Assembly: GCA_963666275.2 (NCBI GenBank)
Contig: CAXXOA010000002.1
Coordinates: 2,112,001 to 2,176,000 of the forward strand
Source of the DNA: Oceanispirochaeta sp.
GTDB lineage: Bacteria; Spirochaetota; Spirochaetia; DSM-2461
Direction: 5' to 3'
DNA: 64,000 nt
Part shown: positions 11,677-40,674 of the stretch, piece by piece
How positions within the stretch are numbered: the stretch's first letter is position 1
Layout: each line of letters starts with the position of its first letter
The notes under the pieces: model-generated
Database searches by the model: none
The model's input: only the letters and a program-made list of their open reading frames with translations
What the model was told of the DNA's origin: nothing
Position numbers and translations under genes: made by a program

Positions 11677-11832
11677 ACCGCTCCCGGGTGTCTATAAGTA
11701 ACTTCCTGAGAATTGTTTCTTCTCTTTTCAAATATTACTACATTTCTCAATATTTAGTAGGAGAAAATGGAAAATTAGCAGGAGGAGCCACGGCGAGACA
11801 GAATGTGTCTGTTGCTTCCCATGCACTCTGTT

Positions 11833-13473: not shown

Positions 13474-13493
13474 ATTCAGTCCAAAGGCTCCGC

Positions 13494-14471
13494 TTACTCT
13501 ATGATCTCATTGATAAGATCCTGCTGATATTCCATAAGGAAATCTCTGGTTTTACGAATCTCTTCTGCTGAAGGATAGGTAATGACTATGCCCTGTTCCT
13601 CCGCCAGTTTCCTTGCCTCGACCTGTGCTTTTTCCGCTTCCATTCTCTGTTCCCGGGCCACTTCATTCCATATGGATCTGATCAGGTCCTGATCCTCTGA
13701 GCTGAGGGAGCTCCAGAAGCGCCGGGATATCATGGGAACATACTGGGGAAAGTATTCATTATCCACAAATGCATATTTGAGGCCGTACTCCCATAAACGG
13801 GCACTCTTCACTGTTTCAAAGGTTGTGAGCAATCCATTTATGGTGCCTTTCTTGAGGTGGAAGGGAACATCCGACCAGGCTATGATCACCCCGTCAGCCC
13901 CCAGGAGTTCCACCCGCATTTTGTTCATAAGCCCGCCGGCCACCCGTATTGTTTTTCCGGACAGGTCACTGAACTCCCTGACAGGATTTCTTCTCGTGGT
14001 AAAAATAAGCGCATGGCCCAGGTCCATCCAGTCTCCGGGAACAACCACATTCAGTTCAGTTTCAATGTCCCTGATCAACTCTTTTCCCCGATCAGATGTG
14101 AGGTAACTGTAGTTGTATTCTTTTTCCTCCCCGAAGAATTCGGGCAGCAGAAAGTAGCTGACCCTGGGAACATACTGACTCACATGCCAGGTTCCCGGCA
14201 CAGCCATCTCAACCTTTCCGGTGTAAAGGGCGGAAATAACCTCCTGATCCCGATAGAGTTTTCCCGAATCATAGAGTTCCACCCGGATTCTGCCCTGTGC
14301 TCTCAGCTGCAGCCGTTCGGCAAATTCCTTCACATCCCTTGTCTGTATATGATCTTCCGAGTTTTCAATGGATATTCTCAATAAGGGTATGACCTGGGAA
14401 TCAATTGGCGAGATGGGGAAAAACAGAAGAGCAATGAACAGCATTGCGCTGAATACTGATTGTACAGACAT
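13494..14471 (-). CDS. dctP: TRAP-type substrate-binding protein (orphan)
   Basis: DctP pattern (LYDSGKL, DLSGKTIRV, GTINGL); start approximate. Confidence 0.8.
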   Translation of the reverse strand: MSVQSVFSAMLFIALLFFPISPIDSQVIPLLRISIENSEDHIQTRDVKEFAERLQLRAQGRIRVELYDSGKLYRDQEVISALYTGKVEMAVPGTWHVSQYVPRVSYFLLPEFFGEEKEYNYSYLTSDRGKELIRDIETELNVVVPGDWMDLGHALIFTTRRNPVREFSDLSGKTIRVAGGLMNKMRVELLGADGVIIAWSDVPFHLKKGTINGLLTTFETVKSARLWEYGLKYAFVDNEYFPQYVPMISRRFWSSLSSEDQDLIRSIWNEVAREQRMEAEKAQVEARKLAEEQGIVITYPSAEEIRKTRDFLMEYQQDLINEIIE

Positions 14472-14675
14472 CCTTTGAATCCTTTTTCTGCTGGTGTGTT
14501 TCAGTCGGCTCAGGGAATAAACCCTTGGGAAATAGCAAGATGTACTGAAAAACATCTTATTATTCTGAAGTGTAATACAAGGACGGAAGTCTATCAAATG
14601 CTGATTGATTTTCACTGATTCCTGTTCGGGGAATTGAAAGTTTACCGGAATGGGTCCTCCCTGGAAGAATCGCTC

Positions 14676-15860
14676 TTATATGTGATTTTTAAGCAGCCGG
14701 AACCAGAGGAGCACCAGGGCTGTAAAAACAGCAGCCGCCGGGAAAATGGCGCCCATACCGAAGAGATCTCCGATTCCGCCCCAGAGAACGGAACCGATGC
14801 CGATCCCCACATCCATAAAAAGATAGAATGTGGCATTGGCAAAAGCCCGCCTTGAAGGATTTGTCTTTTTGACTGCCGCCACATTGAAAAGGACATGGGA
14901 AAGGCCGAAACCCATACCATAGAGAAAGGCTATTGTGAAAATAAGGGGAGTGGTTCTGACAAGGTATACCCCCCCGATTCCCAGGATCATCTCTCCGATG
15001 GCCAGGCTGATCATCCGGCGTTCTCCCATCATTCTGATCATCTGGCCGGCAAAGACCCGGGAGAGAGTCAGACCAAGCGCTCTGGCAATGAAGAAGATTC
15101 CTATGCCGCTGATTTTCTCCACTTCCGCATAGGGCACAAGAAATGATGTGGTAGAGGCAGTTGCCATGGACAGACAACCAATAATAAAAGAAGGGGCAAC
15201 CGCTTTTCTTTCGACAATTTTGTCGATAAAGCGGCGGGTAGGAGAATCCGCCGTATCTGCTTTCCCGCCATCTGATGTATTCCGGAAAGACCTGTCCTTT
15301 TCATATGTAATAAATTTGAGGGATATTAAGGCTGCCGCCATGACAAGACCCGCAGAGAGAAAGAGCTCGGAAAAGCTGAATCGTTTGTAACTCCATATCG
15401 CCAGAAAGGGGCCGAGGGCCTGAGTCACTGTGGCTGTCAGTCCGAAATAACCCAGACCGTTGACCAGTTTCTCTTCCGGGACAATATCGGTGATTATTGT
15501 GGTCAGAGCGATGGACATCAGAGAAAAACTAAGACCGCTGACTCCCTGCAGCAGATAGAGCATGGTTATGTTACCGAAGAAGCCGAAAGGCAGGGTTGTC
15601 AGGGAAAAGAAGAGCATCCCTGTAAAAAGCATCTTTGTCCGGCCTGTTTTTTCAATGAGGTTACCGCTAATGGGGCGGAATACCAGAGCGAAGATAGTGA
15701 ATACGGTCATTGCCAGACCAGCCTGCATCTTCGTATACCCCAGAGATATCATATACAGGGGAATCAGTGTTATTTTATACTGCATTGCCAGGCGCATAAG
15801 CAGAGATGCCGTGAATGCCATATTATAGTCGGTGGTGAATAGGCTGTTCTTCTTTTTCAT
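14676..15860 (-). CDS. MFS transporter
   Basis: 12 TM pattern, RPISGNLIEKTGR motif A-like. Confidence 0.88.
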   Translation of the reverse strand: MKKKNSLFTTDYNMAFTASLLMRLAMQYKITLIPLYMISLGYTKMQAGLAMTVFTIFALVFRPISGNLIEKTGRTKMLFTGMLFFSLTTLPFGFFGNITMLYLLQGVSGLSFSLMSIALTTIITDIVPEEKLVNGLGYFGLTATVTQALGPFLAIWSYKRFSFSELFLSAGLVMAAALISLKFITYEKDRSFRNTSDGGKADTADSPTRRFIDKIVERKAVAPSFIIGCLSMATASTTSFLVPYAEVEKISGIGIFFIARALGLTLSRVFAGQMIRMMGERRMISLAIGEMILGIGGVYLVRTTPLIFTIAFLYGMGFGLSHVLFNVAAVKKTNPSRRAFANATFYLFMDVGIGIGSVLWGGIGDLFGMGAIFPAAAVFTALVLLWFRLLKNHI

Positions 15861-16080
15861 ATTTTCCCGGATTTTCTGTGCAGTATACTCAGATTTCCTG
15901 ATATTAAATGGTAATTTCATATCAGGAATTTGTATAGTAATAGAATAAATATTTTATGCTTACCTAATATCCTTTTCTCTGATTTTTCCATTCGGTCTGT
16001 CAAAAGGGATAAAACCGGCTTCCGGACATGCCGTTTTCATACCTCCTTCCTGTAGGGATTTGTCCACTGAAACGCTGGGT

Positions 16081-17157
16081 TCAGGCCTTCTGAAATTTTA
16101 TCCGTGAAAGTTTGTAAAGCTCCTCCCTGAAAGATCCGGGAAGCATAGTGTTCACCACATGGTTCATAAGAGCCGGTTTGCAGGGGTCACAGAATTTCTC
16201 AACAAAATCCCGGGCGCTCTGCTTCAGGGTCTCCGGCGTCTCACTGTCGTAGCTCTCCGGGATAACTCCAACAACCAGCTGATCTCCATACTCCTCGTAA
16301 ATTTTATGGGTATCATTGATAATCTGCGGGGACCATACATCCCATCCGGCGTTTATAATGGAAGGCACTCTCATATCCAGCAGTCCGCAGCTGTGAAATT
16401 CCGCAATTCTTCCTCTGCTGTGGATATGGTCGGTCAGACGCTTCATGGCCGGAACAATCATCTCTTCACAGGCTTCTTCAGAAAACAGGGGCCCTCTCTG
16501 GGAACCCCAGTCATCATGGACCAGAAATCCGTCGGCATGAAAATAGTCTATGAAATGATCGACAATCTGAATATAAAGGTCTGTCAGTTTCTCGAACAGC
16601 TCCAGAACCGCCTCTTTCTGTGTATCGTCTATCAGGGCTATAGAGGCATTTCCAAAATCCATAAAGGAAATCAGACGTTCGAAGTAGCCGCTGAAGATGG
16701 TTGTAAAGACCGCCCGGTCGTCGGCAAGGAAGTCTTTATTCTTTTCGGCGGTCTCCTTCCAGTCCCAGGATTCAACATCCGGCCAGATCAGTTTGTCCCT
16801 CCACTCATTGGCATCAGTAAAAAGATGGTAAGACGGATCCACGGCAGAGCCCCGGTTCTCCGGATTGTAATGCCATAGAACTCCGAACATATCCGGACCG
16901 CCATAGGTATCCGGAGAAACCGGTAGTTCCTGAATAATAAATCCTCTTGCCAGATTATCCGGAATGATATCGGGACAGAAAGTCATCTTCTCCACTCCTG
17001 TCAGCTGCCAGAGGGGAGCCTTTTTCAGACCCCTCCGGTAGGCTTCTCCCGGGGCAACCGGAAAGTTGTAAAGAGGAATCACAGGACGCCCCAGCCGTGC
17101 GGGAGGTATCTCCTCTACTATTTTCAGTTCATTTTCTGAAAAAATTATCGTTTCCAT
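16081..17157 (-). CDS. Uroporphyrinogen decarboxylase / MtaA-CmuA methyltransferase family protein
   Basis: DMFGVLW, FERLISFM, HDDWGSQ, FHSCG. Confidence 0.8.
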   Translation of the reverse strand: METIIFSENELKIVEEIPPARLGRPVIPLYNFPVAPGEAYRRGLKKAPLWQLTGVEKMTFCPDIIPDNLARGFIIQELPVSPDTYGGPDMFGVLWHYNPENRGSAVDPSYHLFTDANEWRDKLIWPDVESWDWKETAEKNKDFLADDRAVFTTIFSGYFERLISFMDFGNASIALIDDTQKEAVLELFEKLTDLYIQIVDHFIDYFHADGFLVHDDWGSQRGPLFSEEACEEMIVPAMKRLTDHIHSRGRIAEFHSCGLLDMRVPSIINAGWDVWSPQIINDTHKIYEEYGDQLVVGVIPESYDSETPETLKQSARDFVEKFCDPCKPALMNHVVNTMLPGSFREELYKLSRIKFQKA

Positions 17158-17187
17158 ATTTTCGTCCCCATAGGATAATCTCTCATA

Positions 17188-18399
17188 TCAGATGATCCCT
17201 TCGTTTTCCAGATATTTTATTTTATCTTCACTGAACCCCAGAAAATCCGTGTATATTTCCCCATTGTGCTGCCCCAGGTCGGGAGCGGGTTTTACTGGAA
17301 CATAGGTGTCGGACATTCTGTAGGCAGACCCGCAGAGTGTAATTTCTCCCAGGCTGGGATGATCAATGGTCTGAAGGAAGTTAGACTCGTACATATCAGG
17401 CGAGTTGACCACATCGGCGATGGTAAGAGTGGCACCGCAGGGAATCATTCTTTCGCACATAATGCGCATGACGTCTTCCTTGTCCAGAGAGGATGTCCAT
17501 TTGATAACTTCTTCTTCCAGGGAATCCACATTATCCAGCCGGGTGGAACCGTCTATGTATCTGGGATCTTCGAACAGATCCATTCTGCCGATGCCTTCGC
17601 AGAATTTCTTCCACATGATCTGCCCCGGAGTATCCCGTACCAGTATGAAGACATAGTTGTTTTCGTCTCCCTCAAACCGGGGTTTGGTGGGAAACATATT
17701 CCGGGGAGCATTCCGTCCGGCAAAAAGCATGGCACCGCCCCTTTTGGGCATCTCCTTCTGTTCCACAAAGGACATTCTGGACGAGGAAATCACGACTTCC
17801 TGCATATTGATTCTCAGATGCTGGCCCCGTCCGGTTTTCTCTCTCTGGAAGAGGGCTGCCAGGATACTGGATACCGCATAGTGTCCGGAAGGGTCATCGG
17901 CCAGTCCAACCGAGGAGATAAGGGGAGGTCCGTCGAGCATTCCGGTCTGGCTGGCCAGGGTTCCGGTAGCCTGAACCGGTCCGTCCATGGCGGGGAAATT
18001 CGCATAGGGACTGTTCTCATGATACCCCTTGATCTGACAGAAGATACAGCGGGGATTGATCTCTTTGATGGTATCAAAAGTGAATCCCAGCCGCTCAAAT
18101 GTTCCGGGGGCAAAGTTTTCAATGATCACGTCTCCCTTTTTGATAAGCTCTTTCAGAACCTCTTTTCCCCCGTCGCTTTTCAGATCCAGTGTGATGGATT
18201 TTTTATTGGCATGGAGAATGGCCCAAAGCATGTTCTGACCGCCTCCTCTGGGACGTCCCTGTTCTCCCTCTCCGGGTCTTTCCACCTTGATTATATTGGC
18301 ACCCATCTGGGCCAGTGTGAGGGTACAGATCGGTCCGCTGGCAAACTGGGTCAGGTCTATCACATTAATCCCTTCCAGGGCATTGGCTTTTCCACTCAT
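17188..18399 (-). CDS. Family III CoA-transferase (CaiB/BaiF/Frc)
   Basis: DLTQFASGP, NKKSITLDLK, ENFAPG, GLADD, APDLGQH. Confidence 0.92.
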   Translation of the reverse strand: MSGKANALEGINVIDLTQFASGPICTLTLAQMGANIIKVERPGEGEQGRPRGGGQNMLWAILHANKKSITLDLKSDGGKEVLKELIKKGDVIIENFAPGTFERLGFTFDTIKEINPRCIFCQIKGYHENSPYANFPAMDGPVQATGTLASQTGMLDGPPLISSVGLADDPSGHYAVSSILAALFQREKTGRGQHLRINMQEVVISSSRMSFVEQKEMPKRGGAMLFAGRNAPRNMFPTKPRFEGDENNYVFILVRDTPGQIMWKKFCEGIGRMDLFEDPRYIDGSTRLDNVDSLEEEVIKWTSSLDKEDVMRIMCERMIPCGATLTIADVVNSPDMYESNFLQTIDHPSLGEITLCGSAYRMSDTYVPVKPAPDLGQHNGEIYTDFLGFSEDKIKYLENEGII

Positions 18400-18420
18400 T
18401 TTGTCTCTCCTTTATGGTCG

Positions 18421-19728
18421 TTATTTTCCTCTTTTGGGAAGTATTCTCTTTTCAATAAGATTTTCTACCTGAGCCACCATATTCTCCTGGCTCCATTTTT
18501 TAGCATCCGCCGGATCGGCTCTCAGAACACAGACGGGAAATCCCGCTTCCTCCAGAGACCAGACGATATTGTAGAAGAAGTCCCCGTTGTTCATGCAGTT
18601 TTCAGGCACCAGGAAGACGATCCCGTCGATCTGGTTGTTTTTGGCTTCTTTCACAAACCACTGACTGTTGAAGGGGGGAACATGGAGGATATCCTCCAGG
18701 AAGGAAAACCGTGAGGCCAGTGCCCGGATGGGATTCTCTTCCACTTTGTTCCGGATATAACCGTCCGCAGCCAGGCCCAGGTACATGGTCCATACAAAGG
18801 CCGCACCGTATTTCTCTTCGAAGTGCTGGTAGAAGGCCAGGTTGAACCAGAGCCCCCGTCCGATCCAGAGAAGGCGGACATTTTCATTGGGAACCGCGGC
18901 AGTCTGATTGTCCACCAGAGCTTTCACCTCTTCGTAGAGGCTTTTAGCCATTTCCACTGCTTCGGCAGATCCTCTGTGCCACTGGGCTTGCATAACCGCA
19001 TTGATCGTATCCGTTACGGTGACAGGGGCCGGAACCGTACGGGCTATAAGATCTCTTGTTTTCCGGTACCATCCCTCCTGGGCGTTTACATTGTTCAGAG
19101 TTTCAATCAGCCGGTTCAGATCCAGTTTTCTTCCGGTGGTTCTTTCCAGAAATTCCACAAGAAGTCTCAGTTCCTGTTCGTAGAAGTCGATTCTGTTTTT
19201 TCCCAGAAGGGTTTCCCAGTCATCAGGAGATTTCTCCCACCAGTTATCCAGAATCACATCCTGATGATAGTGCTGTATCCTGAAGGCCTCGGCGTTGAAG
19301 GCTTCGGTCATCAGTTCTTCGATTTTAATCCCGCTGGAACAGGTTTCCGCACAGATCACCAGAGAGGGGTGGGGAAGGCCTCCCCAGGGGCCCTCTTCCG
19401 GTTTGGCATCCAGGGAGCAGGCATAGGCGGCGGCACAGTAGGAACAGATATCATTTCTATAGCCCGCCTGTTCCAGAAGATCGTAGAACCGGGGGCCCAT
19501 CTGCTTAGCCGAACAGATGGCCGTCCACCATTGGTTGACCACAAAGGGAATATCCATGGCCCGGAGCAGTTCCATCGGAGCATTGGCACCCACAAAACCG
19601 AAAGGCTCTCCCGCTTCCACTCTGGCATGAAGGCCCATAAACCACTCTTTCTGGAATTTCCCTACCATTCGGGTCGTTTCCAGCTTTTTTACAGACCTGG
19701 TGCTGTATTGTTTCTTTTCTTCAGCCAT
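18421..19728 (-). CDS. 2-hydroxyacyl-CoA dehydratase / benzoyl-CoA reductase family subunit (Fe-S cysteines retained)
   Basis: DICSYC, ETCS, PENC; PWGGLPHP. Confidence 0.85.
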   Translation of the reverse strand: MAEEKKQYSTRSVKKLETTRMVGKFQKEWFMGLHARVEAGEPFGFVGANAPMELLRAMDIPFVVNQWWTAICSAKQMGPRFYDLLEQAGYRNDICSYCAAAYACSLDAKPEEGPWGGLPHPSLVICAETCSSGIKIEELMTEAFNAEAFRIQHYHQDVILDNWWEKSPDDWETLLGKNRIDFYEQELRLLVEFLERTTGRKLDLNRLIETLNNVNAQEGWYRKTRDLIARTVPAPVTVTDTINAVMQAQWHRGSAEAVEMAKSLYEEVKALVDNQTAAVPNENVRLLWIGRGLWFNLAFYQHFEEKYGAAFVWTMYLGLAADGYIRNKVEENPIRALASRFSFLEDILHVPPFNSQWFVKEAKNNQIDGIVFLVPENCMNNGDFFYNIVWSLEEAGFPVCVLRADPADAKKWSQENMVAQVENLIEKRILPKRGK

Positions 19729-20896
19729 TTTTCCGCTCCCGCTTCACTGTTTCCGCAAATTTGGTGCATCGGTCCAGAATGGAATCCGGATCCTTCAGCG
19801 GGTAGTACTGATCCTCAATGGTGAGGATCCTGATACCCATTTTATCCAGTTCTATTTTCAGCTTGGGAAGGTCCCATATGTAGGACTCGTCGTTGTGATT
19901 CATAAAAATGACAACAGCTTCGGCTCCCGTTTCTTTTACCCTCTCAGGCAGGGCCTGAGCTCTGTCTTTTATAAAGGCCCTTTCACTGCTGGGAAACCGG
20001 TTATGGTATCTGTCCGCAATGGCTCTTGCCGGAGGACGGGCGGTATCAGTCTCTCTGTCCGTATAGCGGTCCCCGGGAACTTTATCTTCACACACCACAT
20101 TCAGTCCGGCATTCTGCAGAATCTCATATACTTCGGTTGTATCCTGCATACTTCCTGTATAGAGGCATCTTACGTTTTCCAGGACGGGCCATCCGGCCGC
20201 ATCTTCTGTAAGAGCCCGGAGCAGTTCAATGGCTTTCTTTTTTTCCAGATAAAAAGATCCGGCCAGGACTGTGAGAGCTTCACTTCCGGTGATCCGGCTT
20301 TCAGGACCGAACCGGAGGGCGGAAAAATCTCTCAGGGCAGCCTTGTAGGCATTACAGAGTGTGATTGCTTCGGCCAGATCTCTGTCACTGATCTTTTTCC
20401 CGGTCCACTCTTCCACCCTTGTCTGAAACCTCTGGGTTTCCCTCCAGTTCCGTTCCCGGGTTCTGAACTCCTTGTTGACAAGCCAGTAATCCACGTATTC
20501 GATGTCGGGCAGCCTCCGCTCAGGCTCGATTTTTTTGAGCTGAACCAGATAGTAGAAGAGTTTTTGAATGATATCGGACGAGTTGGACAGAACCAGATAG
20601 TCCATGATATCCGAATGCTCATCGTTCATGATTGTTTCAAACAGCCCTCTCCAGAGGGCTCCGAAAGACATTTCCAGATATTTATCTGCATTCGGACGGT
20701 TGTCGGGGTGTCCCCAGAGTCTGACCGGAATCAGGTCCGCCGCCATGAGGATCTCTTCGGGAACTTCATCTCCCAGCATCCAGGCTGTCTTTTTTCCACT
20801 CAGCATAAGATTCAGAATCGATTCATGTTTATGATCAAATGCCCTTTTAAACTCATTATATGCGGCACTTTCCAGTGCACATGGTCTTGTAGCCAA
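19721..20896 (-). CDS. 2-hydroxyacyl-CoA dehydratase / BCR family second subunit (HgdB/BcrC-like, cysteine motifs degenerate)
   Basis: VPEEILMAADLIPVRL, ADKYLE, RITGSE, AIADRY; overlaps the partner gene. Confidence 0.8.
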   Translation of the reverse strand: MATRPCALESAAYNEFKRAFDHKHESILNLMLSGKKTAWMLGDEVPEEILMAADLIPVRLWGHPDNRPNADKYLEMSFGALWRGLFETIMNDEHSDIMDYLVLSNSSDIIQKLFYYLVQLKKIEPERRLPDIEYVDYWLVNKEFRTRERNWRETQRFQTRVEEWTGKKISDRDLAEAITLCNAYKAALRDFSALRFGPESRITGSEALTVLAGSFYLEKKKAIELLRALTEDAAGWPVLENVRCLYTGSMQDTTEVYEILQNAGLNVVCEDKVPGDRYTDRETDTARPPARAIADRYHNRFPSSERAFIKDRAQALPERVKETGAEAVVIFMNHNDESYIWDLPKLKIELDKMGIRILTIEDQYYPLKDPDSILDRCTKFAETVKRERKNG

Positions 20897-20945
20897 TGAA
20901 CATACCTCCTTTATGAACGGATAATCCTGTAGTTGATTAAAAATG

Positions 20946-21015
20946 ATGCTACCATGTTTATTTTTTGATTTCTAACACCAAAAGAAACGTATCACTACAA
21001 CAGAAAGATTGTAGT
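20946..21015 (-). promoter_or_regulatory. Putative LysR operator/promoter of the leftward operon
   Basis: ACTACAA-N8-TTGTAGT palindrome; TGGTAGCAT extended -10; collinear with 22223-22293. Confidence 0.6.
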
Positions 21016-21146
21016 AGATGGTCTGGATAGAGTTTCAGCGTGTAGAAGAGTGCAAATATTGCAATAATTTTAATAAATACTGTTTTTCTGTTTTAGTGAA
21101 CCTATGGTATAATGTCGAACATGTTCGACGAAATGAGGGAGACCGT

Positions 21147-22118
21147 GTGACTATATTGAATCTTCATATGTTTGTGGAAATCGTCAAAGATATGAATCTG
21201 TGTGTGACTGCCCAGAGATTGAATACCACCCAGCAGGGCTTGTCGGGTCATATCAAACGTCTTGAGACTCACTTTGGTGTCCGCCTGTTTGAGCGTAATC
21301 CCCGTCTTCTACTGACTTCCGAAGGAAACTTCCTGCAGCGGGAATCAAAGAGCATCCTGGATGCGGAACAGAGAATTTTTACCCATTTCGGAACGGGAGG
21401 AAAGTACCACTCCGGCAGTATCAGGGTTTCCTGCGGTATGGCCCGGGCCCGGTACAGCCTTCCCCATATAATCAGTGAGTTTACCTCCCTTTACCCCTCG
21501 GTCAGTGTGAATCTGGTGGATGAGAATACGTTACGCGAAACAGATGTGTTCTCGGAAGCTAAAGTGGATATGGTCATAGGCCGTCCGGTTAAAACATCCA
21601 GCCAGGTCATGGAGATTCCTCTCATAGATCTTCAGGGGTTTATTATGGTCTCTGATTCGCTGCTGAGAAAAAGTCTGAAATCGGGAACAGAAAACTTTAT
21701 CAGAAACGCTCAGGGAGGAGTGGAGGTAAAGGATATTCCCGGGGACATACCCATGGCCTTCCCGGGGGTCATGAAAAAGGAGCCCTGGATCTGTGAGCAG
21801 ATCCCCGAACTCCGGAGCAGACCCCGGGTTTCGGTAGACCGGGAGAACTATGATATCCTTGTCGGTTTGTGCCGGGAGGGAAAGATGATGATGCTTATCT
21901 CCGAGATGTACCTTCACTTTATCAAGAAAACCTACTCATCCCAGTTCTATGAAAATATCCATTTCTTTCCCCATATTCAGGAGGGCTGCCGCTTTATCGA
22001 GCATGAGGTCCTCTCTTATGACGCCAGTAAGTACCATCCCCAGTATTTCCAGGACTTCATCAGTATTATCCTGAAGGAGTTTCAGGGAATCCGGCATGAA
22101 TTCGATGAGTGCCGTTAA
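21147..22118 (+). CDS. LysR family transcriptional regulator
   Basis: TAQRLNTTQQGLSGHIKRLETHFGVRLFER HTH; GTG start after GAGGGAG. Confidence 0.9.
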   Translation: MTILNLHMFVEIVKDMNLCVTAQRLNTTQQGLSGHIKRLETHFGVRLFERNPRLLLTSEGNFLQRESKSILDAEQRIFTHFGTGGKYHSGSIRVSCGMARARYSLPHIISEFTSLYPSVSVNLVDENTLRETDVFSEAKVDMVIGRPVKTSSQVMEIPLIDLQGFIMVSDSLLRKSLKSGTENFIRNAQGGVEVKDIPGDIPMAFPGVMKKEPWICEQIPELRSRPRVSVDRENYDILVGLCREGKMMMLISEMYLHFIKKTYSSQFYENIHFFPHIQEGCRFIEHEVLSYDASKYHPQYFQDFISIILKEFQGIRHEFDECR

Positions 22119-22222
22119 GCCCTTTTCTGAATATTCCGGACTCCTTTCTCGTTTTTCAGACCCCGCCGCATCTCCTGTCTCCCGTTCCGATCGAATCCTC
22201 CTGTCAGAGCAGATTATTTTTT

Positions 22223-22293
22223 TACAACAACAATAATGTTGTAGTAGTACCCGTATTTTGATGTTAGCGTGCCAAAAAATCCTATGATAGCAT
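22223..22293 (+). promoter_or_regulatory. Putative LysR operator/promoter of the TRAP operon
   Basis: TACAACA..TGTTGTAGT, TTTTGATGTTAG, TGATAGCAT. Confidence 0.6.
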
Positions 22294-22343
22294 TCTTTTA
22301 AAAGGTTGAAATTTGTGAATCAAAGCTCACAAAAGGAGGAATA

Positions 22344-22823
22344 ATGAAGCGATTAATCACCTTTACCGACTTCCTGGCCAGGGGAGTTGTTCTTTTTTCC
22401 TGTGTCTCTTTATCCCTGGTTGTTCTAATAATCGCAGTCAATGTTATTGGAAGGGCCTTTAATCATCCGATTCCCGGAGGTTATGATCTGACCATACTCT
22501 GTTCCGCAGTTTCGGGGAGTCTGGCAATTGCTTACACCACAAAACAATGTGCCCATGTGAGCGTCGATATTGTTACAAATATCCTGCCCCCTTTCCTTAA
22601 AAGAATCCAGAGTATGATAACCCATCTTGTGGCGCTGTTCATCTTTGTGATACTGGCCTGGCAGGCTGCGATTGTCTTTGTGGAACGGTTCCACGGAGAG
22701 CTGACGGACACTCTGAGGATCCCCATCTGGCCCTTCCGGCTGATATGGCTCTTTTCCATGTGCTGTTCAATCCTTTTCTGTGTCACTCAATTCATCATAG
22801 CTATGCTGGGAGGTGAAGAATAA
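22344..22823 (+). CDS. dctQ: TRAP small permease
   Basis: 4 TM, NVIGR, HVSVD. Confidence 0.88.
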   Translation: MKRLITFTDFLARGVVLFSCVSLSLVVLIIAVNVIGRAFNHPIPGGYDLTILCSAVSGSLAIAYTTKQCAHVSVDIVTNILPPFLKRIQSMITHLVALFIFVILAWQAAIVFVERFHGELTDTLRIPIWPFRLIWLFSMCCSILFCVTQFIIAMLGGEE

Positions 22824-24130
22824 TGGATCCTATTACAATAGGTATTATCGCCATAATACTTCTGGTTGTTCTGATGGGAATCGGGATACCTATAGGGTTT
22901 GTCATGATGATCCTGGGGTTTGCGGGAGTGGCGATTCTGGTGAATCCCTCTGCGGCCCTTATGAAAATGGCTGTGATTCCCTTCAGTTTTGTATCCAACT
23001 ATGACTTTGCGGTTATTCCCATGTTTATGCTCATGGCGAATATCATCCTGGTCTCCGGACTGGGAACGGACCTCTACAGGATCGCTTCCAAATGGATGGG
23101 ACGCCGCAACGGGGGACTGGCCGTGGCCACCACTGTGGCCTGTGCGGGATTTGCCGCTATCAGCGGTTCCGGGCTGGCTACTTCGCTGACAATCGGTCAG
23201 ACCGGCATGCCGGAAATGAAGAAATATAAGTATGACACCGCATTTTCCGCCGCAGTTATCTGTTCCAGCGGAACCATCGGTCTTCTTATTCCTCCCAGTA
23301 CGGCTCTGATGGTGTACGGTATTGTGACGGGAACTTCCATCCGGAGCTTATTTATCGGAGGTTTTATTCCCGGTATCACTCAGGCTCTCTTCTATATCGT
23401 TCTGATCTCTATCATGACCCGGATCAAACCGTCCCTGGGACCCCACAGCGACAAGGCCTCTTTCAAAGAGAAGCTGCTCTCCCTGAAACAGGGGATTGAT
23501 ATTATTATCCTGATCTCCTTTGTTTTCTTCGGTATGCTTTTCGGCTGGTTCACTCCCACCGAAGCCGGAGCCATGGGTGCGGCGGGAGCCTTCCTGATAA
23601 CCATCGTCCGGAAAAGGATGGACTGGGAAGGATTCAAGTCGGCCATCCGGGATACCATCAAGATTTCAGGAATGTACTTTCTGATCCTGATCGGAGCCCA
23701 GATGTTCATGTACCTGACCTCCGTCACAACCCTTCCCCGGGTGGTGGCACTCTGGGTCGGCGGACTGGATGTGGCTCCCATGACAATTATGCTGATTATG
23801 ATGGGAATCTATATGATTCTGGGCTGTTTCATGAGCGGCAATGCCATCATGATGCTGACTATCCCCATCTTCTTTCCCATTGTTATTCAGCTGGGATTCA
23901 ATCCTATCTGGTTCGGAATCCTCCTTACCAGAGTTTCCGAGATCGGCCAGCTGACTCCTCCGGTGGGACTGGGTGTTTACAGTATTCAGGCCATTCTGCC
24001 TGAAAAAGTTCCCATTCACCGGATTTTCAAATGGACCGCATGTTTCGTCGGTGCCGATGCGCTCCATCTGCTTCTGCTTCTGCTCGTACCGGCTGTGACT
24101 TTGTTTCTACCAATGCTTTTTGCAGGTTGA
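22823..24130 (+). CDS. dctM: TRAP large permease
   Basis: IPMFMLM, GGLAVAT, LIPPS, TPTEAG, LTPPVG. Confidence 0.93.
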   Translation: MDPITIGIIAIILLVVLMGIGIPIGFVMMILGFAGVAILVNPSAALMKMAVIPFSFVSNYDFAVIPMFMLMANIILVSGLGTDLYRIASKWMGRRNGGLAVATTVACAGFAAISGSGLATSLTIGQTGMPEMKKYKYDTAFSAAVICSSGTIGLLIPPSTALMVYGIVTGTSIRSLFIGGFIPGITQALFYIVLISIMTRIKPSLGPHSDKASFKEKLLSLKQGIDIIILISFVFFGMLFGWFTPTEAGAMGAAGAFLITIVRKRMDWEGFKSAIRDTIKISGMYFLILIGAQMFMYLTSVTTLPRVVALWVGGLDVAPMTIMLIMMGIYMILGCFMSGNAIMMLTIPIFFPIVIQLGFNPIWFGILLTRVSEIGQLTPPVGLGVYSIQAILPEKVPIHRIFKWTACFVGADALHLLLLLLVPAVTLFLPMLFAG

Positions 24131-24154
24131 AAATAATAAAGAAAGGAGAATTCT

Positions 24155-25252
24155 ATGTTTACAAAAAGGAAAAACAGTTCTGTTTTACTGGCTGGTCAGA
24201 TTCTGGTTCTTATCCTGGTGGTTGGGCTCAGCGGATGCAGTAAAAAAACAGAGACCGCTTCCGGCGAAAAGTCAGAGAAGGCGCTCACAGAAATGAAGAT
24301 GACCTTCGCGGCTCCCCATACACCTCCCCAGACCTATGCTCAGGTGGATGTGGCTTTTACGGATCATATGAAAGAGGTTTCGGGAGGTAAAATCAATTTC
24401 ACCTACTATCCCGGAGGAACTCTGATCGGCGGAAGCGAAGCTGCTGCGGAACTGAAAGCCGGTGCAGCCGATTTCGGATGGCCCCGGGTAGGTTACTCCA
24501 AGCACGGGTATAAACTCTATAATGCCAACCTGATCTGGATGTACAACCTGGATCCGGTCGAGGATGTTGAAGCGGAACTGGAAATCTATAAAAAGCTCTA
24601 CGAACTGGAACCCATGTATTCCGAGTTTGACGGTATCGTTCCCTACGGTGCGAATGCTTCCGGTACAACAGCATGGCTTTTCACCAATAAACCCATTGAG
24701 TCTCTGAAAGATATCAAGGGAATGACCATCCGGGCTAATGCCGCCTGGGCCAAGGTTGTGACCGAACTGGGAGGCGTTCCCCTGAATATGCCCTTTTCCG
24801 AGCTCTATCTTGCCATGGAAAAAGGAACCATCGACGGAATCCTGGGACTGCCCGGTACGGTTATCAAAGGGGAAAATCTGGGAGAAGTTATCGATTATGC
24901 CATGGATATCAAGATGAACCAGAGCCCCTATTACGCCTGGGCCTTCAATGAAAAATCCTGGAATGAGATGCCCGCTGAAGCTCAGGAAATGTTCAAATCC
25001 GAAGAGGGATGGATTGAACAGAGGGTCGTTGACCAGCTTCAGGGAGAGAACGGACCTTCCATCGAATATGGAAAGGCTCTGGGAATCAACTTCCTTGATA
25101 TCTCAGAAGAAGATAAAAATATGTTATACGGCATTATGGACAGCGTCTGCCGGGAAAACTGTGCCGTTCTGGACGGAGAAGGCTACCCTGCCACAGAAAT
25201 GTACGAATACACCCAGAAACTGATCAAAGAGTTCAAAGACTCCCAGTCCTGA
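24155..25252 (+). CDS. dctP: TRAP substrate-binding lipoprotein
   Basis: Lipobox LSGC; YPGGTL, DIKGMTIR, ELYLAMEKGTIDG. Confidence 0.9.
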   Translation: MFTKRKNSSVLLAGQILVLILVVGLSGCSKKTETASGEKSEKALTEMKMTFAAPHTPPQTYAQVDVAFTDHMKEVSGGKINFTYYPGGTLIGGSEAAAELKAGAADFGWPRVGYSKHGYKLYNANLIWMYNLDPVEDVEAELEIYKKLYELEPMYSEFDGIVPYGANASGTTAWLFTNKPIESLKDIKGMTIRANAAWAKVVTELGGVPLNMPFSELYLAMEKGTIDGILGLPGTVIKGENLGEVIDYAMDIKMNQSPYYAWAFNEKSWNEMPAEAQEMFKSEEGWIEQRVVDQLQGENGPSIEYGKALGINFLDISEEDKNMLYGIMDSVCRENCAVLDGEGYPATEMYEYTQKLIKEFKDSQS

Positions 25253-25312
25253 TAAATCTCACCCGGGACAACCTTTTTCTCAGGCTGTCCCAAAAAATCT
25301 GAAAAGGAAGAA

Positions 25313-26530
25313 TTGATGAATAACACAGCATTAGAAGGCATCCGGGTTGTGGACCTGACCCAGTTTGAAGCGGGAACGGTCTGTACCATGTCTCTGGCAT
25401 GGATGGGTGCTGAAGTCATTAAAGTAGAACATCCGAAAAGGGGCGCCGGGGGAAGATTCTCCTTTGAGGATCCCGGACAGGACTGCAAGGGATTTCTTAT
25501 TATGAATGCCAATAAGAAATCGGTAACCCTGGATGTCAAATCTGAAAAGGGAAAAGAGATCCTGACAGATCTTATCCGCAACGGCGATGTGCTTGTTGAA
25601 AATATGGGCCCCGGTACCATTGAGCGTCTGGGTTTTGACTATGAGACCGTCAAAGCGATCAACCCGAAGATCATTTTTGCCCAGATCAAAGGCTTCGGAA
25701 AAGACAGCCCCTATGCGAAATTCCCCGCTTTTGCTCCCATCGGACACGCCACAGGCGGTGCAGCCAGCATTACCGGCGACCCTGAAGGTCCTCCCATGCA
25801 GATGGGTGTGAATGTGGGTGACAGCGGCCCCGGATATCTCTGCGCTATGGGGATAGTTTCGGCCCTCTATCAGAGAAATACAACCGGAATAGGCCAGAGG
25901 ATCGAAGTGACCATGCAGGAGAGTGTGATCGCCTTCGGCAGATCCGCCTGGGAACAGCAGTACCGGACAGGCAAAGCCGCTCCCCGGGCCGGAAACGGTA
26001 TGCCCCTGGAAAATGTGGCCCCTGCGGGAATGTACCCCTGCAAACCCTTCGGCCCCAATGACTATGTTCATATTTATATTTCCCGGCATCCCGGATCCAA
26101 ACAGTGGGATCTGTTTTGCGAAACTATCGATAGAACCGATCTGCTTGAGGATGAGAGGCTGAAAACACCCCAGTCCCGGTACAACTACCGGGAAGAGCTG
26201 AACACCATCATTGGTGAGTGGACCTCCCAAAGGACAAAGCATGAGGCTATGGAAACGCTGGCTCTGGCGGGAATTCCTGCGGGTGCCACTCTGGATACGA
26301 TGGAGATTACCAACGATCCCTATCTGAGAGAGCGGGGCATTATTTCAGAAGTGGAACATCCTTTTCACGGGAAAGTACTTATTCCCGGATTTCCTGTTCA
26401 TATGTCTGAAACAAAGGTTCCGGTACAGTGTGCCCCGGCTCTCGGCGCAGATAACAAAGTGATCTATCAGGATCTTCTGGGTATGACAGAAGCTGAACTT
26501 GATGCTCTGAAAGAGCAGAAAGTCATATAA
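25313..26530 (+). CDS. Family III CoA-transferase (formyl-CoA transferase-like)
   Basis: DLTQFEAG, NANKKSVTLD, ENMGPG, VGDSG catalytic Asp. Confidence 0.92.
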   Translation: MMNNTALEGIRVVDLTQFEAGTVCTMSLAWMGAEVIKVEHPKRGAGGRFSFEDPGQDCKGFLIMNANKKSVTLDVKSEKGKEILTDLIRNGDVLVENMGPGTIERLGFDYETVKAINPKIIFAQIKGFGKDSPYAKFPAFAPIGHATGGAASITGDPEGPPMQMGVNVGDSGPGYLCAMGIVSALYQRNTTGIGQRIEVTMQESVIAFGRSAWEQQYRTGKAAPRAGNGMPLENVAPAGMYPCKPFGPNDYVHIYISRHPGSKQWDLFCETIDRTDLLEDERLKTPQSRYNYREELNTIIGEWTSQRTKHEAMETLALAGIPAGATLDTMEITNDPYLRERGIISEVEHPFHGKVLIPGFPVHMSETKVPVQCAPALGADNKVIYQDLLGMTEAELDALKEQKVI

Positions 26531-26541
26531 AAGGAAATTTT

Positions 26542-27672
26542 ATGGACAAGGTTTCAATGGTTTTTGCCGGAGATATCATTCTGGGTGAGAATCCGGAGGA
26601 GTATTTCGGGAGCGTCGATCCTGTTCTGAGGAATACCGATGTGGTTGCCGGTCAGCTGGAGGTCCCCTACAGCAACAGGGCGCCGGAGCTGGCGGATCTG
26701 AATCGGCAGGTTGAAAACCTTGCTCCACTGAAAGAGTATTTTGACATTGTTTCTCTGGCGGGGAATCATATCTACGATGCAAAGGACCAGGGGGTCATCG
26801 ACACCCTCTCCTGGCTGGAGAACAATGCCATCCAGTATGTGGGCGGAGGCCTCAACAGGGCAGAGGCCAGAAAAGCCCGGATTGTAGAGAAACAGGGAAT
26901 CCGGATCGGATTTCTGAGCTATAACTGTACGGGGCCGTCGATCATGACTGCCACGGACTCCAAACCGGGTTGTGCTTCTGTTGATATTGTAACCCACTAT
27001 GAGCTGGGGGATATTGCCAATCCCGGGGGCCCTCCCGAATCGATCTACTCCTGGCCGGAACCGAAAAGCTACCGGAAGATGATAGAGGAGATCAGAGATC
27101 TCCGGACCAACTGCGATGTGCTCTGCCTTTACCTTCACAAAGGTCTGGTCCACAAGCCAATAAAACTGGCGGCCTACGAACAGCCTCTCTGTTACGGCGC
27201 CATTGATGCGGGGGTGGATATCATCTTCTGTTCCCATCCTCATATCCTTCACGGTATTGAGGTATACAGGGGAAAAACAATCTATCACAGTCTGGGGAAT
27301 TTTATAGCCTGGGTTCCCTCGCTCAGTCCCGGTTTCAAAGCGGTCCATGGTAAGAAAAATGAGTTTTTCGACCCGGAAGAGTGGGCTAAAACGCGGATTG
27401 AACGGTTTGGTTTTGTTCCCGATCCGGAGTATCCGACCTATCCTTTTCACAGTGAAGCCAGATTCTGCCTGATTGCCAGGTGTTATCTGGATAGAAGCGG
27501 AATCCTCAGTACCGGATGCGTTCCCATGATCGTGGATAAAAAAGGGGTTCCCCGTGTAGTAAAAAGAGTGGACGGGGGAGAGGAAGTCTTCAACTATCTG
27601 AAAATGATCACAGAGAAAGCCGGCCTGGAAGCGGAATTTTTCTGGGATAAAGAGGAAATACTGATCCGCTGA
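26542..27672 (+). CDS. CapA/PGA_cap family metallophosphoesterase-fold protein
   Basis: AGDI, QLE, LAGNHIYD, LHKG, SHPH, HSLGNF; no signal peptide. Confidence 0.85.
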   Translation: MDKVSMVFAGDIILGENPEEYFGSVDPVLRNTDVVAGQLEVPYSNRAPELADLNRQVENLAPLKEYFDIVSLAGNHIYDAKDQGVIDTLSWLENNAIQYVGGGLNRAEARKARIVEKQGIRIGFLSYNCTGPSIMTATDSKPGCASVDIVTHYELGDIANPGGPPESIYSWPEPKSYRKMIEEIRDLRTNCDVLCLYLHKGLVHKPIKLAAYEQPLCYGAIDAGVDIIFCSHPHILHGIEVYRGKTIYHSLGNFIAWVPSLSPGFKAVHGKKNEFFDPEEWAKTRIERFGFVPDPEYPTYPFHSEARFCLIARCYLDRSGILSTGCVPMIVDKKGVPRVVKRVDGGEEVFNYLKMITEKAGLEAEFFWDKEEILIR

Positions 27673-29288
27673 TGAAAGAGTTTCTGAAATCTACCATAGG
27701 AGAAAAGCTGAAAGAGACAGCTCTGCATTTTCCTCTCAGGACTGCTCTGAAGTCAGAGCGGGAAACTCTCAGCTATAGGGAACTGGACCTGATTACCGAC
27801 CGTATTGCAGCCAATCTTCTGGGTCTGGGCCTGAAAGCGGGAGACAAGGTTCTTCTGGTGGATGATAATTCGCTGCGGGGGATCTCTTTTTTCTATGCTT
27901 TACAGAAGATCCGGGTCATTCCTGTTCTGACAGGACCGAAAATCCTGCCCGGAGCCCTCCAGAACCTGATTGATCTGGTTCAATCCGATTATCTGGCCAT
28001 GGGGAGCGGAAAACACGCTCTCGAGCTCATGGACCAGATCCGCCTGAACAAGACCGATCTGAAAAGCCGTCTGGTCTTTTCTCTGGGCTATGAAGGTTAC
28101 CCGGGGCAGGTTGATTACTGCAGTCTCATAAGGGAACCCCGGGAGGTAGATCGGAAACATCTGGAGAGAGTCTTCCGGCAGGCGGATCCGGATGATACGT
28201 CCAGCATCCTTTTTACTTCCGGTACCACAGGAGTTCCCAAAGGGGTCAAAACCAGTCATTTTTCCTGGCTCAACAGCGGCTATTTCCAGGCCATTGATCT
28301 CGAGGCGAGTGAAAAGGATGTGTTCTGCAGCGTTCTGCCCATGTATCACTGTTTCGGTTTAAGCACCAACATCATTGCGGCTATGACCATAGGGGCATCG
28401 GTAGTCCTTCCGGAAGACCGCAGTCCCCGGGGAATCCTGAACGTTATTGAACGGCACGGGTGTACAATCCTGAATGCGGTCCCAACTGTTTTCTATCGTA
28501 TCCTGACATCCGGCAATTACCGGAAAAACGACCTCTCCTCTCTCAGAACCGGTATCATCGGCGGTTCCGGGTGCAGTCCCTCATTTTTCCGGGGAATAGA
28601 AAAGTCCCTGGGTATGACCCTCCTTTCCAGTCTGGGAATGACTGAAGCCACAGCAGGGATCACTGTCAGCACCATGAATGATTCCCTCGAACTGCGTTCA
28701 TCCAGTGTGGGCCGCTTTATGGACTGTGTTGAGGGGGCTATCCTAGATCCCCGGACTGGGGATCTTCTTCTGCCGGGACAGGTGGGGGAGATCTGCATGA
28801 AAGGATACCTGCAGATGCAGGGGTATTACGGAGCTCCCGCTCTTACTGCCGAGGTGATAGACCAGAATGGATGGCTCCATACGGGAGATCTCGGTTATAT
28901 GGACCATCAGGGATATTTGTATCTGAAAGGCCGGATCAAAGAGCTGATTATCAAAGGGGGTGAGAATATCTGTCCCTGTGAGGTGGAAAAAGTCCTGCTG
29001 GAAAACAATAAAGTGGCGGAAGCCAAAGTGATCGGTGTTCCCGATCTGCATTACGGGGAGGAGCTGTATGCATTTATAGTTCCCCAGCAGAATCAGGAAC
29101 TCAAGCTGGAGGAGATCTCTGCCTATACCCGGGAAAGGCTAATCCGGTTCAAGATTCCCCGGTATTTTTCCATTGTCGGAAATCTGCCGAAAAATACTAT
29201 TGGCAAAATCCAGGTGGACCATCTCAGGGAGACCGCCGTGAGGAATCTGGAGAGTGCTGAAAACAAAAAACTCCGCTACTATGAATAA
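27672..29288 (+). CDS. AMP-dependent acyl-CoA synthetase
   Basis: FTSGTTGVPKG, GMTE, LHTGD, GRIKELII, GK. Confidence 0.92.
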   Translation: MKEFLKSTIGEKLKETALHFPLRTALKSERETLSYRELDLITDRIAANLLGLGLKAGDKVLLVDDNSLRGISFFYALQKIRVIPVLTGPKILPGALQNLIDLVQSDYLAMGSGKHALELMDQIRLNKTDLKSRLVFSLGYEGYPGQVDYCSLIREPREVDRKHLERVFRQADPDDTSSILFTSGTTGVPKGVKTSHFSWLNSGYFQAIDLEASEKDVFCSVLPMYHCFGLSTNIIAAMTIGASVVLPEDRSPRGILNVIERHGCTILNAVPTVFYRILTSGNYRKNDLSSLRTGIIGGSGCSPSFFRGIEKSLGMTLLSSLGMTEATAGITVSTMNDSLELRSSSVGRFMDCVEGAILDPRTGDLLLPGQVGEICMKGYLQMQGYYGAPALTAEVIDQNGWLHTGDLGYMDHQGYLYLKGRIKELIIKGGENICPCEVEKVLLENNKVAEAKVIGVPDLHYGEELYAFIVPQQNQELKLEEISAYTRERLIRFKIPRYFSIVGNLPKNTIGKIQVDHLRETAVRNLESAENKKLRYYE

Positions 29289-29467: not shown

Positions 29468-30631
29468 ATGACTGGTCAAAGGAAAAACCCTGAAAAAGTG
29501 TCTGGAACAAATCCGCTTTACAGTGAAATATTTACCTCCGAATTCCTCCGGGGGGGGAATCATTCACAGAAATATCAACTGGTTTGCCTACTCGGTTATT
29601 CTTCTTTTCAGTCTATCCACCTGGCTTTTTCAGGGAAACAGCATTGCCGGGCCTGTAGGAGTGGCCCTAGCGATGTTTAATCTGGTATATAACTTTCTGA
29701 TCGGATATTTCATCAATGACTATAAAAGGATCCACTATATAGGTTATGTGACAATCACACTGAATATAATTTCCCTAACAGTCTATAACTGTCTGGATGC
29801 CATGAACAATTCATTATTCCTGCCGGCTACATCGGCTACACTTCTTCTGTTCCCAGTCATTATTTTTCTTGCCTCTCTGAGGATCAACCATAAACTAGTT
29901 ATTTTTTCGACAGTTCTTTCTGTTGCTTCAATGGATGGCCTTTACCTTTATGTCGCTCATTTTCATGATCTTGATATCCATACAAGTGCCCTCTCCACCG
30001 ACTGGCTCAGCCGGGGATATAGAACCATTTATCTGATTATGATCGGGTATATGATCTCCAGAATCCCGAAAACCATGTACAGGATTCTGGGAAAACAGGA
30101 AGTTCTGAGACAGGAGACTCTGGTTCATCAGACAAAAGCCGAAAAAGACCCGCTCACAACTTTACATAACAGGCATTATCTGAACTCCTACTTTGAAAAC
30201 TACCGTCAGGCCTCATGCCTGCAGAACCAGAAATTCGCTCTACTTTACATCGATATCAATGATTTCAAACAGATCAACGATACCTACGGGCATGACTATG
30301 GAGATTTTGTTTTAATCTCCCTGGGAAAGGATCTGAGATCTGCTGTAAGAGATGAGGATATTGTAGCCCGGCTGGGGGGGATGAACTTGTGATCCTTGTC
30401 AAACTCCAGCCGGACAGGAAGGGCCTTGATGAAATGACTCAGAGAGTCTCCCGGGCGGTTGCCAGCCCCCGCAGCTTTCAGGATGTGACATTTCATATCA
30501 AATGCAGCATCGGGGTCGCTGTCTATCCGGATAAAGCTTCCTCACTGGATGAGCTTCTGAAGAAAGCGGACCAGGCTATGTATTCCGTCAAAAAACAGAA
30601 AAAACACGGCGTGGCCTACTGTTCCGGGTAA
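29468..30631 (+). pseudogene. Membrane GGDEF diguanylate cyclase, frameshifted at two G homopolymers
   Basis: DPLTTLHNR, DINDFKQINDTYGH, ARLGG|DEL, SIGVA..ADQAMY; shifts at G8 29550-29557 and G7 30374-30380. Confidence 0.8.
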
Positions 30632-35041: not shown

Positions 35042-35042
35042 A

Positions 35043-36796: not shown

Positions 36797-36869
36797 TTCT
36801 GATTTTTTCACATAGACCTGTTGAGAGACCCTGTTGCGGCGGGGAAGTGGGAAGGAAGGAAATGAGATT

Positions 36870-37970: not shown

Positions 37971-38037
37971 CGATGGAAAACCCTGTACCTGCGTACAGAT
38001 GAAAATATTAGATTTTAATGATAGTAAGGATAAAAAT

Positions 38038-38985: not shown

Positions 38986-38987
38986 TC

Positions 38988-39020
38988 AAAGGGGCTACCG
39001 GAACAATCCGGGAGCCTTTT
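38988..39020. terminator. Probable terminator between convergent DUF1177 and PucR genes
   Basis: GGCT(A)CCGG...CCGG(G)AGCC imperfect stem, A and T tails. Confidence 0.55.
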
Positions 39021-40664: not shown

Positions 40665-40674
40665 AATAAAAACC

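Follow-up and report, generated by a model that had tools for sequence, protein, structure and literature searches.

Which reaction is carried out by a protein pair with the fold of the 2-hydroxyacyl-CoA dehydratases (HAD) and benzoyl-CoA reductases (BCR), if the activator that drives such enzymes is not encoded beside it? The question is raised by a LysR-associated gene cluster of Oceanispirochaeta sp., located at positions 14676..29288 of a 64-kb stretch of contig CAXXOA010000002.1 (assembly GCA_963666275.2), which is the DNA that was analysed and is called the window below. The best explanation, to which a probability of about one half is given, is a catabolic module, likely under LysR control, in which the pair, alpha and beta, acts as an activator-independent, probably non-radical polar acyl-CoA lyase giving an enoyl-CoA. 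This reading draws on gene content, the loss of Cys and Glu/Ser residues, Tyr conservation, the lack of a nearby activator, a shared promoter motif and gene fusions, all taken from the sequence. The pair is encoded as follows:

18421..19728, minus strand: alpha, the substrate-binding subunit of HAD/BCR fold (Pfam HGD-D, structure comparison)
19721..20896, minus strand: beta, HAD/BCR fold, TTG start with ribosome-binding site (Pfam HGD-D, structure comparison)

Gene adjacency and fusions predict that alpha and beta form a heterodimer. The two genes overlap, and in 45 of 47 loci beta is located directly upstream of alpha. When 1.84 billion representatives were searched with a profile, 234 proteins matched at E<=1e-30; the best 150 of these gave 81 full-length alpha rows, 18 long, and 14 of the 18 long representatives are beta-alpha fusions. 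The model of beta (predicted local distance difference test, pLDDT, 94) matches BzdN and HadC with template modelling (TM) scores of 0.85-0.88. Relative to the closest orthologous locus (L002), beta is under purifying selection (proportion of non-synonymous differences, pN, 0.18; of synonymous differences, pS, 0.73). When aligned with hhalign, it has no Cys at any of the three cluster-ligand positions of HadC or BzdN. Cys occupies these three columns in 0 of 75 homologues versus 12 of 12 canonical controls; the homologues come from all fetched loci and are open reading frames (ORFs) no shorter than 330 aa, 89 reduced to 75 at 90% identity. Cys is the majority residue in only two columns of the beta alignment, both outside the ligand positions.

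The activator of a canonical HAD reduces the beta cluster, and this in turn hands the electron to the alpha cluster, as passages of PMC11574389 and PMC7317905 describe. The sequence-only reading had pointed out that the cluster is without an ATP-dependent activator, and this was borne out. No activator (PF01869 or TIGR00241) was found in the window, and one of the 108 loci of the family contains an activator, which belongs to a separate canonical operon in convergent orientation; the 108 loci (28 genome, 80 metagenome; median 11.6 kb) are redundant. Adjacency of an activator to 12 of 12 canonical pairs is circular, as these loci were fetched via activators, and was not used as a control. The missing activator is accounted for by a beta subunit without the cluster ligands that would receive the electron, and the pair is very probably activator-independent.

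Genome-wide, three activator matches were found: one stand-alone protein and two domains of one 1438-aa fusion. The stand-alone activator is part of a separate canonical CoA-transferase-HadC-HadB-activator operon on contig C3 (G000:C3:38640-46090, L030), beside which a divergent ligase is 52% identical to the ligase of the window; a URO-D paralogue is also located near this operon (C3:52136). Many genomes with the pair also have a canonical operon like this one, a hint that the metabolism of the two is linked. The 1438-aa protein with its two activator domains (G000:C2:517493-521809) presumably resembles plasmalogen synthases, and similar fusions are present in most host genomes. With a stand-alone activator in the genome and an activator-family match above the cut-off in 18 of 23 host genomes, the pair could be pictured as a radical 2-hydroxyacyl-CoA dehydratase of the canonical kind, working with an activator borrowed from the C3 operon. 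Such borrowing is very improbable, because beta has no ligands for the electron-receiving cluster and 11 of the 17 fetched activator regions hold a canonical pair of their own. The hosts of the closest orthologues also argue against it: G064 has no activator, and the Spirochaetota G061 and G073 have, above the cut-off, only large fusions of 1418-1478 aa. No TIGR00241 match was found in the host genomes G064, G082 and G083, nor in the single-contig Pseudomonadota genomes G280 and G459, both of which carry the pair.

The alpha subunit has the fold of HadB and BzdO (model pLDDT 89; TM 0.79-0.83 to BzdO/HadB). It keeps the three ancestral ligand Cys (C95, C130, C378), and an extra Cys98 creates a CxxC motif. 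In the anaerobe set (99 ORFs, each 380 aa or longer, reduced to 56 sequences), 49 of 56 have C98 together with the three ligand Cys, and in the other seven all four are gone together. This co-occurrence suggests that C98 is a fourth ligand of a closed site. Six of the seven Cys-free alphas (L099, L103, L105, L108, L117, L124) form one clade in which Asn, Asp, Gly and Asp replace the four Cys, the NDGD clade, at about 50% identity to the window alpha. The tree (FastTree) places the NDGD clade among four-Cys sequences on a short branch; long-branch warnings apply to L131/L137 and L120/L123, and the number of independent Cys losses is uncertain. The window alpha groups with sequences from Spirochaetota metagenome-assembled genomes (MAGs), among Bacillota ones. 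Loci of the NDGD clade have the same neighbours as four-Cys loci. Their beta subunits carry acidic residues at the former cluster site, and with acidic residues at both the alpha and the beta Cys sites a different metal may bind.

The presence of C95, C130 and C378 in 49 of 56 sequences would also suit an alpha that retains a catalytic [4Fe-4S] cluster and is a one-cluster enzyme, of Lewis-acid or redox type, that takes its electrons directly from ferredoxin or from a beta-bound flavin; parts of PMC11574389 report that some HADs carry a flavin. This is judged improbable, as the co-varying fourth Cys would close the open iron site and the Glu/Ser that position the Fe-bound water are gone. In addition, C95, C98 and C130 are absent from 7 of 56 sequences of the anaerobe set and from 2 of 6 of the aerobe set, and C378 is absent from all six of the latter.

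Further residues distinguish chemistry from binding. Glu65 and Ser44 of BzdO position the Fe-bound water, according to sections of PMC11971306. The first is replaced by Gln66 in alpha (55 of 56, versus Glu in 12 of 12 controls) and the second by Ala48 (54 of 56, versus Ser in 11 of 12 controls). Tyr97 and Tyr298 of BzdO, which hydrogen-bond the thioester oxygen, correspond to Y97 and Y316 of alpha and are kept in 56 of 56 sequences, in 6 of 6 aerobe sequences and in 35 of 36 distant representatives. The equivalent of BzdO Gln274 is Arg291 in 54 of 56 sequences of the anaerobe set. E53, W67, W250 and W294 are invariant across all three sequence sets.

The same residue evidence would fit a pair that is likewise non-radical and activator-independent and performs another reaction of the thioester: it might decarboxylate or epimerise it, cleave it by a retro-aldol or Claisen reaction, transfer the acyl group, or carry out a substitution on an aroyl-CoA. 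The nearest folds are those of BzdO and MbdO, which bind benzoyl-CoA; the pocket gains the invariant tryptophans W67 and W250, a fused BbsEF-like CoA-transferase is present in the aerobic loci and glycyl radical enzymes in some anaerobic ones. The recurrent acyl-CoA dehydrogenase, Old Yellow Enzyme (OYE) and beta-oxidation genes fit an enoyl-CoA product instead, and another polar reaction is regarded as somewhat unlikely. It is less likely still that the pair itself catalyses nothing and serves the CoA-transferase as a scaffold or by binding acyl-CoA, and the chance of this is put as slim, lower than that of a one-cluster enzyme. A scaffold would agree with the loss of the canonical catalytic residues and with a CoA-transferase directly after alpha in 21 of the 45 loci with room for it. 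Alpha is more conserved than the CoA-transferase, however (88% versus 83% identity to L002; pN 0.08 and pS 0.80 for alpha, indicating purifying selection). At L003, L004, L006 and L007, where the pair is accompanied by LysR, the fetched flanks contain no CoA-transferase, and no other gene of the window obviously transforms a thioester.

The polar lyase reading is also in line with where the family occurs. A plasmid search gave nine records, seven of which show 34-37% identity, in the aerobic genera Novosphingobium, Croceicoccus and Rhizobium. The module of beta, alpha and family III CoA-transferase, often with CapA, recurs in sphingomonads and in the single-contig genomes G280 and G459. Three annotated sphingomonad loci share GntR, a CocE/NonD hydrolase, CapA, TRAP, beta and alpha as well as the fused BbsEF-like CoA-transferase, a PETase-like hydrolase and a further CoA-transferase; a P450 is close by in two of them. 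Sphingomonad alphas have C95, C98, C130 and C132 and lack C378, and the alphas of Rhizobium and G459 have none of the four Cys. A Rhizobium locus without CapA encodes a mandelate-racemase-family protein and two MmgE/PrpD proteins. The system is thus not confined to anaerobes, and a reading of the locus as an anaerobic, radical route of HAD/BCR type is not upheld: beta has no relay ligands, Glu/Ser are replaced, and the module is present in aerobic sphingomonads and rhizobia. The family was found in 2 of 400 sampled Pseudomonadota genomes, besides the seed. No beta orthologue was detected at E<=1e-30 in 60 related genomes, so the distribution of the locus is patchy, and no relatives of beta were found among viral contigs.

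In 55 non-redundant loci, beta was counted in 54, a CoA-transferase in 38 (within 8 kb), PucR in 15, CapA in 14, URO-D in 5, a glycyl radical enzyme in 5, an esterase in 4, TRAP in 4, OYE in 3 and a ligase in 2, counts that are lowered by short contigs. In the metagenome set an acyl-CoA dehydrogenase was present in 6 loci and citrate/dicarboxylate-type carriers in 12. Recurring neighbours that handle enoyl-CoA are acyl-CoA dehydrogenase, OYE, and 3HCDH with thiolase or BKACE. For the P450 and one glycyl radical neighbour, no characterised enzyme was close enough to name a substrate. The glycyl radical enzymes beside the pair at L008:5678-8125, L009:4918-7416 and L025:15122-17512 reach no NCBIfam cut-off and possibly have new activities. 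Two divergent beta-alpha pairs are present in one locus (L076:1-7549), and several MAGs have two paralogous beta-alpha loci each.

The source genome is 97% complete and has a size of 5.27 Mb. All 12 ORFs of the locus that had been listed from the sequence were recovered at the same positions and with the same Pfam families. Besides alpha and beta, the locus contains the following features:

14676..15920, minus strand: MFS transporter, accessory, possibly for product export (Pfam MFS_1)
16081..17157, minus strand: URO-D-superfamily protein, accessory, possibly a corrinoid-dependent O-demethylase subunit (Pfam URO-D)
17188..18399, minus strand: family III CoA-transferase 1, Frc-like, with Asp168 (Pfam CoA_transf_3, Asp motif)
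20946..21014, minus strand: left promoter, with palindrome ACAAY-N6-GTTGT, second conserved box and extended -10-like site (matrix scan)
21147..22118, plus strand: LysR regulator, likely start GTG 21147 (Pfam HTH_1, LysR_substrate)
22225..22293, plus strand: right promoter, with the same palindrome and a -10-like site, upstream of dctQ (matrix scan)
22344-22823, plus strand: TRAP DctQ (Pfam, NCBIfam)
22823-24130, plus strand: TRAP DctM (Pfam, NCBIfam)
24155-25252, plus strand: TRAP DctP, with Arg193 of the IRA motif (Pfam, NCBIfam, motif)
25313..26530, plus strand: family III CoA-transferase 2, Frc-like, with Asp170 (Pfam CoA_transf_3)
26542..27672, plus strand: CapA/PGA_cap-family metalloenzyme, candidate C-alpha epimerase or hydrolase (Pfam PGA_cap)
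27672..29288, plus strand: acyl-CoA ligase, accessory, P-loop intact (Pfam AMP-binding)

Two divergent arms around a LysR gene had been described. The two arms are there, but LysR itself is on the plus strand and points the same way as the TRAP arm. On the minus strand, the left arm runs beta, alpha, CoA-transferase 1, URO-D, MFS; on the plus strand, the right arm runs LysR, dctQMP, CoA-transferase 2, CapA, ligase. Gaps within the arms are operon-like (-8 to 60 bp), except for 160 bp ahead of the MFS gene, whose homologues in the orthologous loci L002 and L005 show 42% and 52% identity.

Are the two arms one regulatory unit? Alignment of the DNA upstream of beta in eight orthologous loci with both intergenic regions of the window revealed one common layout, consisting of the palindrome ACAAC-N6-GTTGT, a second box and an extended -10-like site. 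A matrix trained on the eight orthologous promoters only, with the window left out, was scanned over the 5.27-Mb genome. The window sites at 21014 (minus strand, 42.8 bits) and 22225 (plus strand, 33.1 bits) ranked first and second, and the next site scored 14.8. With the two arms holding the top two sites of the genome, the co-regulation that had been expected of them is supported, and LysR is inferred to control both. LysR orthologues (42-71% identity) are located beside beta in eight genome loci. Of nine loci with a LysR orthologue, eight have the motif upstream of beta, a figure that is partly circular since these are mostly the training set; of the 62 loci without one, none has it. A generic promoter and terminator scan gave results at chance level (18 found versus 17.3 expected). 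The longest ORF of LysR begins at ATG 21018, 4 bp off the upstream edge of the left promoter motif; the start is probably GTG 21147, a site preceded by a ribosome-binding site.

The partner proteins give clues to the pathway. The catalytic Asp of both CoA-transferases is aligned, and the two are 42% identical. They score 322 bits (CoA-transferase 1) and 366 bits (CoA-transferase 2) with the Frc model, below the NCBIfam cut-off (442/504), and oxalate/formate transfer was rejected for this reason. An uncharacterised CoA-dependent route, as the sequence-only reading had proposed, agrees with the finding that no HadB/C, BzdN/O or Frc equivalog cut-off of NCBIfam was reached.

The PDB relatives of CapA are MslH entries only, and MslH epimerises the carbon next to a free carboxylate (parts of PMC10406935 and PMC8179263). 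CapA has equivalents of seven of eight named MslH residues, including both His/Asp dyads, with His261 replaced by Gly; NF038314 gives 47 bits versus a cut-off of 700. Its D11, E40, N75, H76, D79, H199, H232 and H234 are invariant in 29 of 29 sequences. As both catalytic dyads of MslH are kept, CapA may be an epimerase at least as readily as a hydrolase, so that the earlier label of hydrolase is not established; the dyad and ligand residues occur in phosphoesterases too. Capsule synthesis was rejected, there being no capB/capC-like gene among the 12 genes of the locus.

The URO-D protein matches its Pfam family weakly (28 bits versus a cut-off of 23.9) and URO-D/methyltransferase clusters of the Atlas at 0.96-0.97; no sequence match to it was found in the PDB. 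H255 and C257 are invariant in 6 of 6 sequences and form an HxC that we take to be a Zn motif. The superfamily includes O-demethylases, as noted in portions of bioRxiv 10.1101/2023.07.31.551370, and the protein is possibly a corrinoid-dependent O-demethylase subunit. A corrinoid protein and a RACE-type activase are encoded at G000:C2:2265588-2268640 and are possible partners for the 12 URO-D-family matches of the genome.

Pointers to the substrate are scattered. The PDB relatives of DctP are distant (best E 2e-18); some of them presumably bind coumarate, indole acids and benzoate, for which a confirming search found nothing. L002, which is the closest of the orthologous loci, additionally encodes a carboxylesterase and has two ORFs of the DUF3237 family, which includes the lignin-dimer decarboxylases PhcF, PhcG and PinX (parts of PMC12607616 and PMC9942872). 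Sphingomonad loci lie near genes for tannase/feruloyl esterase or hydroxycinnamoyl-CoA lyase. Together with the possible O-demethylase role of the URO-D protein, these are weak clues to plant phenolics such as a hydroxycinnamate or lignin dimer, and peptide transporters and amide hydrolases near the pair point instead to N-acyl compounds. On the basis of the neighbouring genes it is plausible that the substrate is aromatic or methoxylated. None of the other candidates considered, namely aryl-lactates, hydroxymandelates, substituted succinates, N-acyl amino acids, betaines and tropate, gained decisive support.

Under the lyase reading, in which catalysis, reaction type, metal content and substrate are what we infer, the TRAP system would import a carboxylic acid, probably aryl-substituted, that is released from esters or amides and is possibly plant-derived. 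The ligase would prime the acid, the two family III CoA-transferases would recycle CoA, and CapA may interconvert stereoisomers at the carbon beside the carboxylate. Tyr97 and Tyr316, plus Arg291 in anaerobes, would hold the thioester oxygen, and acid-base chemistry via an enolate would expel a leaving group to give the enoyl-CoA, to be reduced or beta-oxidised downstream. The four Cys of alpha would ligate either Zn or a structural Fe-S cluster that is closed. With corrinoid partners encoded elsewhere, the URO-D protein may strip an O-methyl group.

Several observations weigh against this reading. Since none of the three ancestral ligand Cys has been lost from the window alpha, it may still contain a catalytic cluster. 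Arg291 is Ala or Thr in the six aerobe sequences. Activator-family genes are carried elsewhere in the genome of the window and by most hosts, as given above. The genes downstream vary widely and include glycyl radical enzymes (5 of 55 loci), amide hydrolases, dicarboxylate carriers and peptide ABC transporters, so that neither the enoyl-CoA product nor the aryl acid is fixed. CapA and URO-D occur in only 14 and 5 of 55 loci, partly owing to short contigs. The pointers to plant phenolics come from few loci, and sphingomonads are rich in such genes anyway.

A bolder and unlikely extension would be that the widespread subfamily, derived from the oxygen-sensitive radical scaffold of the HAD/BCR enzymes, is a metal-dispensable CoA-thioester lyase which, together with a CapA-type epimerase, breaks a linkage of hydroxycinnamate dimers or conjugates (diferulate, lignan-type acids), serving gut and sediment anaerobes as well as aerobic lignin degraders, with the four-Cys form of the window as an evolutionary intermediate. 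If true, an air-stable acyl-CoA lyase could matter for the turnover of plant phenolics in the gut and for lignin valorisation. Gut genomes and sphingomonad plasmids carry the subfamily under the annotation 2-hydroxyacyl-CoA dehydratase, and these annotations and any pathway predictions derived from them are probably wrong. Natural versions with four, three plus one, and zero Cys (35-50% identity) offer a direct test of a cluster-free fold, and the culturable aerobic hosts make the subfamily tractable.

Other features of the window were also recorded. At 9433-14615 a lone DctP gene without DctQM is located directly upstream of two sensor histidine kinases, possibly for sensing. A membrane GGDEF protein at 29523-30392 is possibly frameshifted, its match ending at profile position 81 of 161, where GGDEF is expected. 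An uncharacterised catabolic cluster at 34379-45955 (Asp/Glu/hydantoin racemase, S-Me-THD-like protein, AroM, M20 peptidase, DUF1177) faces a PucR regulator and a peptide ABC transporter.

How does the system compare with those already known? Overviews of the HAD/BCR family list, in the parts of PMC11971306 and PMC7317905 concerned, Fe-S-bearing members only. A search of titles and abstracts in the open-access literature, with subscription journals not covered, found no description of the subfamily or of the gene set. Characterised two-subunit members have been described as Fe-S enzymes driven by an ATP-dependent activator, machinery that the subfamily is without. FldBC, HgdAB and LcdAB are (R)-2-hydroxyacyl-CoA dehydratases, as is HadBC with its activator HadI. 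With HadBC/HadI the window pair shares the HGD-D fold in both subunits (TM 0.81-0.86 to 3O3M/3O3N), a predicted alpha/beta pairing, a linked family III CoA-transferase, three alpha Cys and both thioester tyrosines. Unlike HadBC/HadI, it has no cluster Cys in beta, no adjacent activator, Gln/Ala in place of Glu/Ser, the extra Cys98, Cys-free and aerobic relatives and a CapA partner, and identity is about 18-20%. The calcineurin-fold epimerase MslH and CapA agree in the dyads D11/H295 and H88/D91 and in the ligands E44, N87 and H259 (MslH numbering), but His261 is Gly in CapA and genes for lasso peptides or capsules are absent from the locus.

The double-cubane cluster proteins (DCCP, YjiM) share the fold of the pair (TM 0.71-0.85). 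Unlike them, the window encodes an alpha-beta pair instead of a homodimer, without a reductase gene and without the 7-Cys motif that passages of PMC7317905 give for DCCP; the DCCP model NF040772 yields 44 and 88 bits versus a cut-off of 350. The class I benzoyl-CoA reductases BzdNO and MbdON are the best structural matches (TM 0.79-0.88), and the equivalents of Tyr97/Tyr298 are present in alpha. They differ in the double-cubane ligands, which beta does not have, in Glu65, Ser44 and His131, for which there are no equivalents, and in the BzdPQ ATPase and ring-degradation genes, which are absent from the window; the BzdN/O models give 64-65 bits versus cut-offs of about 450. As the pair departs from these enzymes in the beta ligands, in Glu/Ser and in the activator, it should be filed neither as a HAD nor as a class I BCR, and is a variant of the HAD/BCR scaffold, probably with new chemistry.

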